This document shows positions 6,990 to 18,431 of a stretch of DNA of 26,512 nucleotides, piece after piece (the stretch's first letter is position 1; each line of letters begins with the position of its first letter). Below the pieces are notes generated by a model, which saw only the letters and a program-made list of their open reading frames with translations, was not told the DNA's origin and did not search any database. A program made the position numbers and the translations under genes. The stretch is taken from positions 1-26,512 of the IMG/VR virus record IMGVR_UViG_3300046788_000343; one strand, given 5' to 3'. The stretch is from a virus (Duplodnaviria; Caudoviricetes).

Positions 6990-7433
6990 ATGGGGAGACA
7001 TCAAAAACACAATCTAGATGATCTAGCCGATGAAATAATCGAATGGTCTCAACACGCAACATCTTTGAATCTGATCGGCTTTTCCTCTCCAAAGCGTATG
7101 AGCGTCACAAAGTTGCCTGAATATGCCAACAAACATAAGAAATTTCGGGAGGCCTTGCAGCTAGCGAAGGAAAATATCTCTCAAAATAGATTTGATGCAG
7201 CATGTGCCGAAGTGATGCCTGAGAAATTCTATTCTCGTTGTGAAGGTCAATATGATCCGCTTTATCATAAATACGATAGAGAAGAGAGAAAATATGATGC
7301 TGATATCAAAGCTAAAGCAGAAGGCAACAACAGAAATCAAAAAATTATAGTTAAGGTGAAAAATGACCTTGCCCGTGGAGTTAACGTTCGAGCCAAGAAG
7401 TTATCAAATTCCAATAATAGAGGCTCTAAATAG
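6990..7433 (+). CDS. terS: Putative terminase small subunit
   Basis: Immediately upstream of and overlapping terL; size and MGR start are typical; assignment mainly positional. Confidence 0.65.
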   Translation: MGRHQKHNLDDLADEIIEWSQHATSLNLIGFSSPKRMSVTKLPEYANKHKKFREALQLAKENISQNRFDAACAEVMPEKFYSRCEGQYDPLYHKYDREERKYDADIKAKAEGNNRNQKIIVKVKNDLARGVNVRAKKLSNSNNRGSK

Positions 7434-9573
7434 TGGAACCAAACGCGCTGTCTGGGTGGTGCATAGGCGAGGAGGCAAGGACATTACTGCTTTTAACTGG
7501 TGCATTCTCCAGCTTTTGCTTAATAGTGGGTGGACTGCTTTTCATATTTTACCTACTTATAGTCAAGCTAAGAAAGTAATCTGGGATTCGTCTACGAATG
7601 ACGGCAAACGCATTCTTGATTACATTCCTCGAGAGGTAATCGAATCCAAGAACGGTCATGAGATGAAGATTCGATTCACAAATGGATCTCTTTATCAGCT
7701 TATCGGCTCGGATAACATTGATAGCCTAGTCGGCTCTAATCCTAAGATCATTATCTTCTCAGAATATGCTATTCAATCTCCTAACGCGTGGGCATATCTC
7801 AGCCCAATTCTAGAGGTTAATAAAGGCTATGCAATCTTTATCTCTACCCCGCGTGGTAAAAACCATTTCTATGATCTTGTGAATAATGCAAAAGCTAATC
7901 CTGACTGGTTTTGCGAGGTGCTATCAGTCAAAGATACTGGTGTATTGACCGAAGAAGACTTAAAAAGGATTCAAGCCGATAATGGATTCTCAGATGAACA
8001 TATGCATCAGGAGTATTACTGCAGTTTTAATCGCGGCGTGGAGGGTAGTTATTATGGGCGCATCATCGAAAAAGCGAGAGAAGAAAAAAGAATATGTAAT
8101 GTCCCATATGATACGCGCTGCCCGGTACACACTGCGTGGGACATTGGTTATGGGGACAGTACTAGTATCACCTTCTGGCAAGAGGTTGGGGGCGAATTGC
8201 GTATCATCGATTTTTATGAAGCACAAGGAGAAGGAATAGCGCATTATGCCAAAGTCATACAAAACAAGCCCTATGTATACGGCACACATTATATGCCGCA
8301 TGATGCGGGCTCGGGATCTATACAGACTGGAAGAACGTTGCAAGATGTTGCGTGGGAACAAGGCCTCAAGACAACGGTATTGGAAAGGGAAACAGATATT
8401 GCCATTGGCATTGAAGCCACTCGTTCACTATTAAGTATTGCATTCATCGATGAAACCAAATGCAAGCATCTCATCAAATGCTTAGAAAACTATCACAAAA
8501 AGTTTAATGAAAAGACCCAAGCGTATAGCGAAACGCCTATGCACGATTGGTGCTTTACTGGTGACACAAAAATATTGACGCATAACGGAACGTGTCGCAT
8601 AATGGATCTACCTAAAACAGGGAGTATTAAAACATTATGCGGATTCAAACCGTACACAAATCCACGAATAACGCGGAAAAATGCCCAACTTGTGGAGGTG
8701 AAGTTTGTCGACGGGACTATAGTGAAATGTACGCCGGAGCATTTATTTTTAACGGTAAACGGTTGGAAATCCGCAGAATCCCTAATGCCTTATACAGAGA
8801 TCCAATCATCCTTGATGAACTCACCCAATATTTCGATGGTGGATTATACCGAATATGGCCAAATGAAACATATTTCACTCGCGGAGGAAAGAAATTACAT
8901 CGAGATGTTTGGAAATCTGCGTTTGGTGAAATACCTGCAAAATGCCATATCCATCATAAAGACAGCAATCCAAGAAATAATTTACTTGAAAACCTTGAAT
9001 GTTTGCCCGCATCTGAACATTTATCAACAACTTGGAAAGATATCCCATCAAGAAAATTTGGTGATAAGGCTAGAGAAAAAGCAGCCGAATGGCATAGATC
9101 AGAAGAGGGTAGGTTGTGGCATAAAAGAAATGCAGAAAGAACAAAAAATTGGACTAAATGGAAAAGGGAGCCAAGGAATTGTTTGTTCTGTAATAAAGAA
9201 TTCATGGCAATGGTTCGTAAAAATGGTCACCAATCGAAATATTGTCACCCAAACTGTAAAGCAGCCTATTATAGAAAGCGTAAAGCATCTGGATTATAAG
9301 GAAGATGTTTGGTGTCTTACAGTTCCAGATCATGAGCATTTTAGTCTTTTCAATGGTGCTATAGTTCATAACTGTTCTCATGCTGCCGATTCTGTTCGCT
9401 ACATGGCGAATGCTCGCACGCAATTTGGGCGTGGGCCAGGATCGTTGACACAAGATAAGCTCAATCAGCTTAAAACCAACGCAGGCTATGGGCCCAAGCC
9501 AGGACCAAGATTAGGACCGCAGACGCCATTTATAGGCCCAAATAACAATAATCCATATTCAATGAGGAGATAG
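7363..9573 (+). CDS. terL: Terminase large subunit, intein-containing (462 aa after splicing)
   Basis: HRRGGKD Walker A, IIFSE Walker B, ISTPRGKNHFY, WDIGYGD; nuclease motif HDW|CSHAADSVRY is split by the intein. Confidence 0.95.
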   Translation: MTLPVELTFEPRSYQIPIIEALNSGTKRAVWVVHRRGGKDITAFNWCILQLLLNSGWTAFHILPTYSQAKKVIWDSSTNDGKRILDYIPREVIESKNGHEMKIRFTNGSLYQLIGSDNIDSLVGSNPKIIIFSEYAIQSPNAWAYLSPILEVNKGYAIFISTPRGKNHFYDLVNNAKANPDWFCEVLSVKDTGVLTEEDLKRIQADNGFSDEHMHQEYYCSFNRGVEGSYYGRIIEKAREEKRICNVPYDTRCPVHTAWDIGYGDSTSITFWQEVGGELRIIDFYEAQGEGIAHYAKVIQNKPYVYGTHYMPHDAGSGSIQTGRTLQDVAWEQGLKTTVLERETDIAIGIEATRSLLSIAFIDETKCKHLIKCLENYHKKFNEKTQAYSETPMHDWCFTGDTKILTHNGTCRIMDLPKTGSIKTLCGFKPYTNPRITRKNAQLVEVKFVDGTIVKCTPEHLFLTVNGWKSAESLMPYTEIQSSLMNSPNISMVDYTEYGQMKHISLAEERNYIEMFGNLRLVKYLQNAISIIKTAIQEIIYLKTLNVCPHLNIYQQLGKISHQENLVIRLEKKQPNGIDQKRVGCGIKEMQKEQKIGLNGKGSQGIVCSVIKNSWQWFVKMVTNRNIVTQTVKQPIIESVKHLDYKEDVWCLTVPDHEHFSLFNGAIVHNCSHAADSVRYMANARTQFGRGPGSLTQDKLNQLKTNAGYGPKPGPRLGPQTPFIGPNNNNPYSMRR
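8551..9372 (+). mobile_element. Intein (274 aa) in TerL
   Basis: Block A CFTGDTKI, block B KCTPEHLF, block F VWCLTVPDHEHF, block G IVHN followed by Cys+1. Confidence 0.93.
8637..9299 (+). CDS. HNH homing endonuclease in an alternative frame inside the intein
   Basis: LHRDVW...GEIPAKCHIHHKDSNPRNNLLENLECL...EH (HNH_3-like) plus C-terminal CxxC...CxxxC; true start uncertain. Confidence 0.85.
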   Translation: MRIQTVHKSTNNAEKCPTCGGEVCRRDYSEMYAGAFIFNGKRLEIRRIPNALYRDPIILDELTQYFDGGLYRIWPNETYFTRGGKKLHRDVWKSAFGEIPAKCHIHHKDSNPRNNLLENLECLPASEHLSTTWKDIPSRKFGDKAREKAAEWHRSEEGRLWHKRNAERTKNWTKWKREPRNCLFCNKEFMAMVRKNGHQSKYCHPNCKAAYYRKRKASGL

Positions 9574-14204: not shown

Positions 14205-14471
14205 CTATTCCTTATGGCAATGCATTAAGTGCGCTTTGAATTCGGCATCTTGTAGAGCCATTCTTCCTTTAAATTCGGCATCTTGTCTTTCTAATTTACC
14301 ATGGAAGTCTTTAATCTCTTCCTTGATTTCGCGGATTAATTGCAGAATGTCTCTTCGATCTGCTGCTGCTGTATTTGCTTGGTCTCTGCGATCTGCGTTT
14401 GCTTCTGTTCTTAACCAGAAGAACATTCCCAACATCGTGACTAAAAATACAGCGAATTGTGTCCATTCCAT
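14205..14471 (-). CDS. Small TM plus coiled-coil protein, paralog of 14020-14196
   Basis: MEW plus hydrophobic helix; shared E.KDFHG.L; internal repeats ADRRD x2 and QDAEFK x2. Confidence 0.8.
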   Translation of the reverse strand: MEWTQFAVFLVTMLGMFFWLRTEANADRRDQANTAAADRRDILQLIREIKEEIKDFHGKLERQDAEFKGRMALQDAEFKAHLMHCHKE

Positions 14472-15523: not shown

Positions 15524-18431
15524 ATGAGCGGCCCTACAACAACAAGCATTCTGCCTCCGGCTGTCCAACAGCAGTTGAGCATGAAACTGCTTGCTCGTCC
15601 AATGCCAGATCTGATCCATACTACAATGGGTAAAGAATAGGGATTGCCCATATAAAATTTGGCTATTTGCTGGAAACTCCTAAAGCTTTCTGGTACACTG
15701 TATGCGACAGTCAATTACAGTGTAAAAATCCAGGAGATGAAACAATGGACAATCAGCAGGAAAGATTAGAATTAAGCCCGCAATGGTTTGCAGGATTTTT
15801 TGAAGCAGAAGGATGGTTAAGTTTGATGGATACAAAGAGAGTTGAAAAGGGTGAAAGAATCTCAAGATATGTTCCAACTTGTGGCATATGTAACACAGAT
15901 TTTCATATTTTATCTTTGATTCATGACTTATTCTATCAGAATGGAATCGAATATCAGTCATATGTAAGGAAACCAAGGAAAAAAGGATATAAATTAAGTT
16001 GGCAGATACATATTTCAGGGATGAAAAAATGTATAAAATTTATAGAATTTATTACCCCGCATATGATTGGAGAGAAAAAAATAAAAGCTCAAAAAATCTT
16101 GGAATTTTGCATAAATAGGAAAAATAAGATAAATGGATTTTGTGGAGTTTCGTATTCACAGTCCGATATCGAACTATTTTGTAATATTAATTCTAAAATC
16201 CTCAACGACTACACGCCAAACACCGAAAAGGTGATGATATAGTCTGAACATACGTGAGAACGTATGAGAGGGGAATAACAAGACCCTCCGCTATGTAGGT
16301 AGCTAATATAGGTAGCTACATAGTCATAAAGTAACAGCTAGTATCCGATCACAATGGATCAGCAAGCTGGCGATATTCTGAGACGACGACGTTATCAGAA
16401 TCTACAAACGGCTCCGGTACCACTTGGTAATGGAATCGTCGACCCACCAGCGCAGCAATTGACTGCTCTGGATATTGACGCACGCATTGATTGGTTACAA
16501 GCAGCATAAGCCATGCCAATCATCTTGAAGGGGTATGAATTTGATGGTACATACCTAATCCTTCAAGAGCAGGTAGACAAAATTGCCTGCTATAAACCAG
16601 CCCTAATTGACTTGGAACTCTGACCGCGTCAAGGCGAAGAAGACAAGGCGGAAGTGTTTGAAAATAAATGATAAACGAGATATAATCTTTCCAAAAAAGG
16701 GGTTATATGGAGTGGGTACAAGTTTTAACAATTATTGTTACGTTGTTAGGTGGAATTTTTTATATTCACTCAGATGTGCGAGATATTAAAAAAGATATGC
16801 AACAACACAATGCGAGAATGGATCAACTGAGTAACAGAATTGACAAATTGTACGAGATGTTTATCGATTTATTAAAATCAAAAAACACGCCGTGAGAGAC
16901 TTAAGCGGGTAGGAACCGAAAGGTTAAGCGAAAGTCCGATCTGTGCAGGAAACGCGCAGAGAGGGGAATAACAAGACCCTCCGCCAAGAATTAACATTTT
17001 TCGAGATGAACTCGATAAAATTAATTAACATAATCCTTGGTCAACAAGTAACAGTGTGAATGCTCATAAACGAAGATCCCGTGCTCAATTCAGCGGTATC
17101 TGTCCTTGGCCAATCTCTTCGGGAAACTGAAGATCAATTGGCACGTTCGATGATGGAAGGGGGTAAAATGTGTGCTCCCTATAAATCTTGGGTGATTGAC
17201 TTGGAACTCCTAGCTGCCTAGGCAGAAGGAAGACAAGGCGGAACTGTTACTCCACGTTGGTTTAAGATTTTCATTTGTCCATATAGAGATCGTCTAAGAT
17301 CCAGAGTTTTTTGGGATACAGGACACTCTCTCCGGACAAATGTTTCCCTAAACTGAATGGCAAGCAAACATTGTTGTTTTTTAACTATGAGGTAAGGAAG
17401 AACTTGTTTAAGGAATGATAAAGTATCATTGTTGTTGGAACGCCAAATATATTGTGGCTTCCAGTTAATGTGAATCTTTTTACTTGGAGCTTTGATTTCA
17501 CGATGATCACCAGGAAAATTATCACTTAACCATTCTAACAATTCTAAAGATGAATTGTAGATATCAACAGTAAGATAATGACGATTAAGACGCTTGGAAT
17601 AGTACATTCCGAAGCAGCCTTCGCCGTCTATCAGTCCGGCAACGTAAGCAAGTTTTTCAATCATAAGGCTCCAATGTTATATGTTACGTACATTATACAA
17701 TGATGATGCGTAGAATGCAACAACAGACCGTGAACGACTAAGTCCCGAGACGCCGAAAGGTGAAGCGATAGTCTGAACAGTATAGTAATATATTGAGAGT
17801 GATCCGAAGAGATTGCTCCGCCATAGAAATATGGTCAGTAGGTTGGGAACCGAAAGTAACAGAACTGGCACCTCCGATTAACTGTACTTCAGGTACAAAC
17901 GGGGACAACCCAACCAACATTAGTCCATTGGATTGCTCAAAAGCCGTGCGCCTCTTGCGTACAGCCAATGCTCAATTCATCATGGATATTATTGAAGGTG
18001 AAAATAAATTTGGTACAGCTCCAGTCCGTACAGCATTCTTTGGTCTAGGCCACACGAATCTGTCGGCAGATCTTGACCAAATGCTTGGATTTATTAACGT
18101 AGCAAACTACGCTAATCAGTCCAATTTACTTCAACCCGAATGGGGTACCGTAAGGAACTTACGTTTCTTGCTCTCTTCCGTCGGGTCAATTACTCCAAAT
18201 GCTTCTGCCAATGGTGCAGACGTTTACAACGTTTTCATTCCAGGGCAAGAATCTTATGACATGGTTGATTTGGACGGATACTCCGCTCAATTCTGCTATG
18301 CTCCGCCTGAAATTGCATCCCCACGCTTGAGACTCTACCAGACTGCTGGTTGGAAAATGGCTCAAGTATTCAACATCACCAACACCTCTTGGATTGTCAA
18401 CCTACGTTGCACTCTCCAAGTAGCACTATAG
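15524..18431 (+). CDS. Major capsid protein (N4-gp56-like), spliced: join(15524..15631,16342..16495,16544..16574,17059..17164,17868..18431), 320 aa
   Basis: Joined exons give an uninterrupted 963-nt ORF: MSGPTTTSILPPAVQQ..HTTMG|YPITMDQQAGDILRRRRY..IDARIDW|YGTYLILQEQV|MLINEDPVLN..RETEDQLAR..GG|APPINC..FGTAPV..EWGTVRNLRF..TAGWK. Confidence 0.9.
15632..16341 (+). ncRNA. Group I intron 1 in the capsid gene (710 nt)
   Basis: P1 AUGGGU/GCCCAU with U.G at the splice site; P4 UUGCUG/CAGCAG; P3 UUUGGC/GCCAAA; P7 GACUA(16207)/UAGUC(16240); P8 with GAAA loop; terminal G. Confidence 0.93.
15745..16242 (+). CDS. LAGLIDADG homing endonuclease (single motif) in intron 1
   Basis: WFAGFFEAEGW motif; start ATG 15745 with SD AGGAG (track starts at 15667). 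Confidence 0.9.
   Translation: MDNQQERLELSPQWFAGFFEAEGWLSLMDTKRVEKGERISRYVPTCGICNTDFHILSLIHDLFYQNGIEYQSYVRKPRKKGYKLSWQIHISGMKKCIKFIEFITPHMIGEKKIKAQKILEFCINRKNKINGFCGVSYSQSDIELFCNINSKILNDYTPNTEKVMI
16496..16543 (+). ncRNA. 48-nt core-less group I-like mini-intron
   Basis: Contains an in-frame TAA; removal restores W-Y-G-T-Y; P1 UGAUUGGU/GCCAAUCA with U.G; P10 GCCAU/AUGGU; ends in G. Confidence 0.8.
16658..16686 (+). promoter_or_regulatory. Sigma70-type promoter inside intron 3
   Basis: TTGAAA-17 bp-TATAAT, 20 nt upstream of ATG 16707. Confidence 0.75.
16707..16895 (+). CDS. Intron-encoded small TM plus coiled-coil protein (not an endonuclease)
   Basis: MEWVQVLTIIVTLLGGIFYIHSD hydrophobic helix followed by heptads; SD AAGGGG; own promoter. 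Confidence 0.8.
   Translation: MEWVQVLTIIVTLLGGIFYIHSDVRDIKKDMQQHNARMDQLSNRIDKLYEMFIDLLKSKNTP
17218..17664 (-). CDS. LAGLIDADG homing endonuclease, antisense within intron 4
   Basis: LAYVAGLIDGEGCF motif; LPYLIVKKQQ; SD GGAG. Confidence 0.92.
   Translation of the reverse strand: MIEKLAYVAGLIDGEGCFGMYYSKRLNRHYLTVDIYNSSLELLEWLSDNFPGDHREIKAPSKKIHINWKPQYIWRSNNNDTLSFLKQVLPYLIVKKQQCLLAIQFRETFVRRECPVSQKTLDLRRSLYGQMKILNQRGVTVPPCLPSA
17692..17720 (-). promoter_or_regulatory. Sigma70-type promoter for the antisense endonuclease
   Basis: Minus-strand TTGCAT-17 bp-TATAAT. Confidence 0.75.

Follow-up and report, generated by a model that had tools for sequence, protein, structure and literature searches.

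How does a tailed phage make its major capsid protein when the gene is interrupted by a 48-nucleotide (nt) insert that carries a stop codon but no catalytic core? This question is raised by the N4-gp56-family major capsid gene in IMG/VR record IMGVR_UViG_3300046788_000343, analyzed here as a 26,512-nt window (the whole stretch of DNA), part of a tailed phage genome in which a terminase and a P22-like portal gene are also present. Once the insert and three long introns are removed, five exons join into a frame of 320 codons; all four inserted segments are preceded by a U and terminate with a G. The joined protein is identical at 281-286 of its 320 positions to four natural uninterrupted capsids, each with a contiguous D-W-Y-G-T-Y, the very junction that a first-pass annotation of this DNA had proposed for removal of the insert, and no relative carries a 16-residue insertion at this position. 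To judge from the sequence, what interrupts the capsid frame is a coreless element related to group I introns, and it is probably excised by the ribozyme of the adjacent downstream intron (intron 3, hereafter the partner), which would remove both introns, with the insert depending on this neighbor and intron 1 not being needed. The gene is organized as follows.

15524-15631, plus strand: capsid exon 1 (36 codons)
15632-16341, plus strand: intron 1, a full group I intron with an endonuclease-like open reading frame (ORF) at 15667-16242 (Rfam RF00028, 28.7 bits, below gathering threshold)
16342-16495, plus strand: capsid exon 2, whose final 8 nt form the 5' strand of the insert's P1 helix
16496-16543, plus strand: coreless 48-nt mini-intron (the insert), preceded by U, terminal G
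16495-16509, plus strand: in-frame Leu-Gln-Ala-Ala-stop, predicted to act as an ssrA-like C-terminal degradation tag for the 91-residue product of unspliced RNA
16510-16522, plus strand: internal guide, comprising a P10 strand (16510-14, pairing with 16544-48) and a P1 strand (16515-22, pairing with 16488-95, with U.G at the cut)
16524-16537, plus strand: bridge strand, pairing with exon 3 at 16550-55 and 16560-67
16544-16574, plus strand: capsid exon 3 (31 nt)
16575-17058, plus strand: intron 3, the partner, with a full group I core lacking P2 (both core halves match model R1; helices assigned by hand)
Intron 3 helices, plus strand, assigned by hand: P1 16568-75/16584-91, P3 16596-601/16905-10, P4 16608-14/16644-50, P7 16896-902/16932-37
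17059-17164, plus strand: capsid exon 4
17165-17867, plus strand: intron 4, full group I, with a read-through ending in Leu-Leu-Ala-Ala-stop
17868-18431, plus strand: capsid exon 5 (TIGR04387, N4-gp56 family, above cut-off)

The first-pass annotation had delimited the insert as 16496-16543, after U16495 and ending with G16543, with an in-frame TAA at 16507-16509, and every coordinate that it gave for the insert and its helices proved correct on the sequence; the Ala-Ala ending that precedes this stop was absent from it. P10 is complementary by inspection, and the insert's P1, the bridge and the P1 of intron 3 all form when 16480-16600 is folded at minimum energy (-39.8 kcal/mol, z -4.63, matched by 0/200 shuffles), and they are kept in a fold of the longer segment 16342-17100. 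A single base separates the bridge strand from the insert's P1, and the P1 of intron 3 adjoins it directly. Neither Rfam nor R1 gave a match over the insert beyond intron 3's own P1.

Capsid proteins were aligned to DNA allowing introns, in three viral locus sets, each picked solely on its last exon and limited to the best 80 of 112, 245 and 611 loci, respectively. Removal of duplicates, of two poorly aligned loci and of genes not covering codons 80-115 left 208 distinct genes, and extra viral and metagenome loci were gathered by searching for the partner's P1. Related phages carry similar short inserts that covary with their exons: 73 distinct inserts of 28-79 nt were found at two sites of N4-gp56-type capsid genes. 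Of these, 30 share the site of the window's insert, and the remaining 43, which belong to two other capsid groups, occupy a second site located five bases downstream. The inserts of two further loci, L245 and L309, are outside the 73. The terminal G was imposed by the search rule for 34 second-site inserts, while the other 39 end in G unprompted. The two insert sites are found with three partner sites, separated by exons of 26, 31, 32 or 39 nt, and the spliced capsid frame is intact in all 208 genes. The shortest inserts, of 28-30 nt, are wholly taken up by guide, bridge and terminal G. Since full introns occupy the same sites in two relatives, a 689-nt intron at the window's site in L059 and another at the second site in L221, the inserts likely arose through core loss. 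Four inserts of 79 nt (L302, L232, L333 and L341) contain an additional hairpin, which follows the bridge strand, precedes the terminal G and may be a P9 remnant. In L021, the spliced alignment places an unexplained insert of ~130 nt near codon 40, beside a 342-nt intron; this locus has a very long branch and may be misaligned. Inserts of this kind are too short for intron models to detect, and such capsid genes would be annotated as broken.

The presence of an insert goes hand in hand with that of a full group I intron. Among the 208 genes, all 33 insert carriers have a full intron at most 45 nt downstream, as opposed to 2 of the 175 non-carriers; 9 further non-carriers have one 46-60 nt away, and 46/175 have one elsewhere. 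A loose search of viral contigs with the insert pattern alone returned 23 capsid rows, overlapping the earlier loci, and all 23 have the partner's P1; 113 of the 136 rows examined were non-capsid matches. In the window's capsid group the partner site is never occupied without an insert, whereas 29 introns of the other groups are found there unaccompanied. In 17 of the 33 carriers, a complete capsid gene has the adjacent intron as its sole full intron. Because of these 17 genes, intron 1 is not required, and it was rejected as a necessary core donor. The proposal of the first-pass annotation that the insert is a non-autonomous intron borrowing the core of intron 3 or intron 1 is supported for intron 3, in line with the pairing, the covariation, the moving bridge and the missing core described below, but not for intron 1.

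The partners have what the inserts lack. Profiles of the 5' and 3' halves of the core were built from 15 short introns of the same family, four of them partners; 18 partners that run off the available DNA or whose end was not located were left out of the count. The 3' half was matched by 55/55 partners covered in full and by 0/73 inserts, and the 5' half by 41/55 partners; neither half, and hence neither P3-P9 nor the P7 guanosine site, was matched by any of the 73 inserts. Intron 3 has a complete core by both profile halves and by hand assignment of P3, P4 and P7, with an intact P7 G-C pair. P2 is missing from the 15 aligned introns, in which only a short A-rich linker separates P1 from P3. 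The partner cores are diverse and look exchangeable. In some full introns, L364:3546-3794, L387:3546-3794 and those of L037, L043 and L055, the core is set apart from the 5' splice site by long extensions.

The inserts also bear the marks of conserved pairing. At the window's site, 98% of 696 cells are paired in 29 of the 30 inserts (L302 was left out for its length), compared with 31-44% in slid controls; 8 of 24 pairs are changed on both sides, and the covariation score was reached by 0/500 shuffles. At the variable P10 pair, 11 of the 30 inserts have A-U and 19 have G-C, and the guide tracks the silent third base of the Tyr codon in 30/30. At the second site, the equivalent P10 pair is formed in 42/43 inserts by four types of pair, these counts being taken independently of the MAFFT alignment, which misplaced P1. 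P10 reaches at least 4 bp in 72/73 inserts, and the U.G pair typical of the group I 5' splice site is present in 29/29 at the window's site. These data indicate that the insert structure is under selection.

The bridge ties the insert to its neighbor. A helix of at least 6 bp, at most 3 nt from the insert's P1 and at most 1 nt from the partner's P1, forms in 70/73 inserts and in 23/1460 shuffles, under an abutment rule that was chosen after the observed gaps had been seen; counting any insert-exon pairing brings the shuffles to 666/1460, which is uninformative. The median bridge is 12 bp long. Like P10, the bridge covaries with the exon, and its position moves with that of the partner: when the exon is 39 nt long, the bridge pairs with a later part of it, again flush with the partner's P1, in 4/4 cases.

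What happens when ribosomes enter the insert before it is excised? Read-through of the unspliced RNA ends with Ala-Ala in 60/73 inserts (29/30 at the window's site), against 4.9% of shuffles, and with Ala-Ala, Val-Ala or Thr-Ala in 69/73. The Ala codons vary, all three stops are used, and the motif is provided variously by the P1 loop, the bridge strand or an out-of-frame reading of the next exon, a pattern that points to selection on the peptide for a C-terminal Ala-Ala. All 20 inserts with a stop inside the exon are 3n+2 in length. In such second-site inserts (L205, L224, L230, L265 and others), the next exon read out of frame yields Leu-Ala-Ala or Leu-Val-Ala, so that 13 exon bases code twice. 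In E. coli, the terminal Ala-Ala is described as critical, necessary but not sufficient, in ClpXP-dependent ssrA-like degrons (bioRxiv 10.1101/2024.01.29.576913). By analogy, translation would terminate within the insert as long as it is unspliced, and the resulting fragment with its Ala-Ala terminus is predicted to be destroyed by ClpXP.

The distribution of these endings bears on the order of splicing. In the window's group, 40 of the 42 other introns past codon 78 end with Ala-Ala, as opposed to 0/24 first introns and 1/21 partners; in the window itself, the read-through of intron 1 stops after 2 codons without Ala-Ala, and that of intron 3 lacks it as well. Across groups, Ala-Ala ends 1/63 partners versus 15/29 unpartnered introns at the same sites, with five unpartnered rows reassigned by hand and one partner without a stop in range. 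In the window's own close group, the Ala-Ala ending of nearly all full introns past codon 78, exemplified by 17165-17218 in the window, is often within the P5 region of the ribozyme, and the first intron stops immediately, untagged. These counts suggest that ribosomes rarely reach the partner, and that RNA with the insert out and the partner still in is rare. Loss of the partner's tag is expected if the insert cannot leave before the partner is active, whereas early self-removal of the insert would leave the partner unshielded. A single case, L309, fits this reasoning: an extra intron within exon 3 is untagged, and the bridge of the insert forms only once that intron is gone. As this bridge matches only the spliced exon, and with it the usual partner, it would imply an order for the three removals. 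Three inserts follow one another in L309:1203-1508: a 51-nt mini-intron, a full intron of 224 nt that splits the 31-nt exon, and the usual partner. In L221, where a full intron at the second site neighbors the same partner site, neither intron is tagged, and this locus gives no indication of order.

Group I cores can dock P1 as a separate helix. In the mechanism that we favor, the insert's P1, the bridge and the P1 of intron 3 would form three abutting helices ahead of P3, placing the insert's P1 in the position that P1 has in introns with P2 and P2.1; the present family itself lacks P2. The core of intron 3 would dock the insert's P1 and catalyze a guanosine-driven cut after U16495, P10 would align exon 3, and G16543 would enter the P7 site, so that exons 2 and 3 are joined. 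Tentatively, the insert leaves last or almost together with intron 3, an order that takes a little over half of the probability we give to the shared ribozyme; excision of the insert first, with intron 3 still attached, takes the rest. The tag pattern favors the former, for which spliced intron 3 would stay bound through its guide, while an attached core offers the simpler geometry. These elements are likely natural satellite introns, that is, guide-only RNAs docked through an exon bridge, with one ribozyme serving two introns in a set order that is written in which intron carries the degradation tag.

Other explanations have to be weighed against the same data. Splicing of the insert in trans by any free group I core (excised introns 1, 3, 4 or others), with the pairing due to joint homing and the bridge serving only to present the 3' splice site, is unlikely. 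It would agree with the movement of the pair as a unit across the capsid tree, with the diverse and apparently exchangeable partner cores, and with the stop-free frame of at least 100 codons in 21/33 partners; yet the other 12 partners have no long frame and are nevertheless kept, the bridge is flush with the partner's P1 in 70/73 inserts and shifts when the partner's site shifts, and no insert is found with distant introns only, though 46/175 non-carriers have such introns. We consider it improbable, to a greater degree, that the insert removes itself, either as a minimal ribozyme like the fungal PaSSU introns or through a protein endonuclease and a ligase. PaSSU-type inserts, of 63-75 nt, do have P1, P10 and an intron-3' exon pairing, and splicing of one of them in vitro has been reported (PMC3160393). 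However, guide, bridge and terminal G already fill the shortest capsid inserts, none of the 73 matches a core half, an independent element would need no neighbor while 33/33 have one, and its early removal would expose the partner, which has lost its tag.

Equally improbable is that the insert is retained in the RNA, whether the capsid is then obtained through ribosomal bypass, whether re-initiation yields it as two chains, or whether the carriers are defective. The window's insert is a multiple of three with an in-frame ATG at 16513, and a formal Asp-to-Asp hop is available at the site. But insert lengths fall in all three frames, 52/73 inserts have no in-frame start codon after their last stop, and re-initiation as at 16513, which the first-pass annotation had named as an alternative, is not borne out in relatives. 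The insert splits a Tyr codon, so that a hop would lose the conserved Trp-Tyr, and none of the 43 second-site inserts ends with a copy of the last exon codon; the P10 covariation and the intact spliced frames of the 208 genes speak against decay. In bypass of the T4 gene 60 type, the ribosome takes off and lands at matching codons, and the take-off codon is immediately followed by a stop; programmed bypass of this type was rejected, since the sole matching Asp codon is followed by a sense codon. The chance that the insert is a sequencing or assembly artefact, or a chance structure, is negligible. Among the listed contig pieces from four DNA runs that match the window on both sides, none spans 16489-16532, and thus none bridges the insert; but 73 distinct inserts with compensatory changes in public contigs, 30 of them at this same site, dispose of the idea that the TAA is a sequencing error. 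None of the 13 sequencing runs listed as carrying the sequence is an RNA run.

Several observations weigh against excision by the neighboring ribozyme. On the capsid tree, insert-partner pairs have a patchy distribution (21 carriers out of 66, with 18 changes); co-occurrence would likewise result from joint homing by itself, and the counts are not independent events. Co-homing does contribute to the pairing, and insert and partner have likely spread as one homing cassette. The conserved motif just before the 3' end of full introns, present in 111/122 of them, is found in 0/73 inserts, and a P9.0-like mimic of the partner's 3' end was sought in the inserts and not found; P10 alone would account for how the core finds the inserts' 3' G. 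The bridge rule is missed by 3/73 inserts, L307 folding no bridge, and L417 and L466 not being flush with the partner. Independent P10 changes are few, 6-7 per side, with 4 concordant pairs on well-supported branches (p 0.125), and 7/8 P1 pairs are invariant at the window's site. Finally, 14/29 unpartnered introns, mostly from other capsid groups, also lack Ala-Ala, and four third-group inserts have no tag. Set against the pairing, the moving bridge and the absent core, these points leave excision of both introns by intron 3's ribozyme the probable explanation.

With the group I introns of phage protein genes, the inserts share the U before the 5' cut in a P1 U.G pair, P10, the terminal G and a location in a capsid gene (Rfam RF00028; mycobacteriophage LittleE capsid intron, PMC3706429), and also an early in-frame stop (PMC3984707). 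They differ by having no P3-P9 core or G-binding site, by the bridge to the downstream exon and by the constant adjacent full intron. The PaSSU introns of the small-subunit ribosomal DNA (SSU rDNA) of Phialophora fungi are likewise short (63-75 nt), with P1 bearing a G.U, P10 and a mid-intron/3' exon pairing, and their description includes a P7 of their own, a terminal U and self-splicing (PMC3160393). By contrast, the inserts have a terminal G but no P7, can be as short as 28 nt, and lie in bacterial-virus mRNA beside a full intron. The insert resembles both classes but lacks the ribozyme that defines the first, and the own P7, terminal U and SSU rDNA setting that define the second. A functional parallel is man-made: in engineered spliceozymes and trans-excision-splicing, group I cores remove short coreless segments and join the flanks, with the ribozyme supplying the guide (PMC4094466, PMC2532722). 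By analogy, the insert would work like a spliceozyme substrate, although it is natural and the P1/P10 guide and the tether are part of the insert itself. The spacing of two introns by 23-34 nt also recalls the tandem group I introns around the 23-nt exon of Twort orf142, where a core can use the neighbor's splice site; both introns are complete there and the cross-reaction skips the exon (PMC10136302). In the insert pair, one intron is coreless and the exon must stay, as dropping exon 3 would shift the capsid frame. The read-through endings are similar to ssrA-like C-terminal degrons, with a terminal Ala-Ala mostly after Leu (bioRxiv 10.1101/2024.01.29.576913). Unlike the ssrA tag, however, the tag is encoded in the intron's own frame and not added by transfer-messenger RNA, and the window's Leu-Gln-Ala-Ala is a predicted degron. 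An engineered tag placed after an intron has been described (PMC8565351); neither that report nor PMC12880540 bears on novelty. Our literature search, which had little coverage of subscription journals, found no natural coreless intron served by a neighbor and no intron-encoded degron.

A coreless intron served by its neighbor, if confirmed, would split substrate from catalyst in a system of ~700 nt. To our knowledge, natural group I introns are taken to remove themselves, and separation of the substrate from the catalyst is a step proposed for the origin of spliceosomal introns. The pair would then be a natural spliceozyme and a living model of catalysis parted from the intron that needs it. 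The 73 natural variants are a ready source of compensatory pairs, the combination of own guide and exon tether could be a template for RNA-editing ribozymes, and tag loss in partner introns would be a way to infer splicing order from genomes.

Two further ORFs lie within the capsid introns.

16707-16895, plus strand: 62-codon ORF within intron 3, not an endonuclease, with weak holin/spanin-like matches
17218-17664, minus strand: endonuclease-like ORF within intron 4

Rfam detects introns 1 and 4 only, both below gathering threshold, and not intron 3. A genome scan for the host gave only two short contigs, both in one bin labeled uncultured Legionellaceae, which is too weak to name a host. The ORF of intron 4 has a LAGLIDADG-like Pfam match below cut-off, and its PHROGs family is labeled HNH. 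The 62-codon ORF of intron 3 has a hydrophobic start and is 33% identical over 40 residues to a small minus-strand ORF upstream (14205-14471). Further upstream, the large terminase gene (7363-9573) has an intein.

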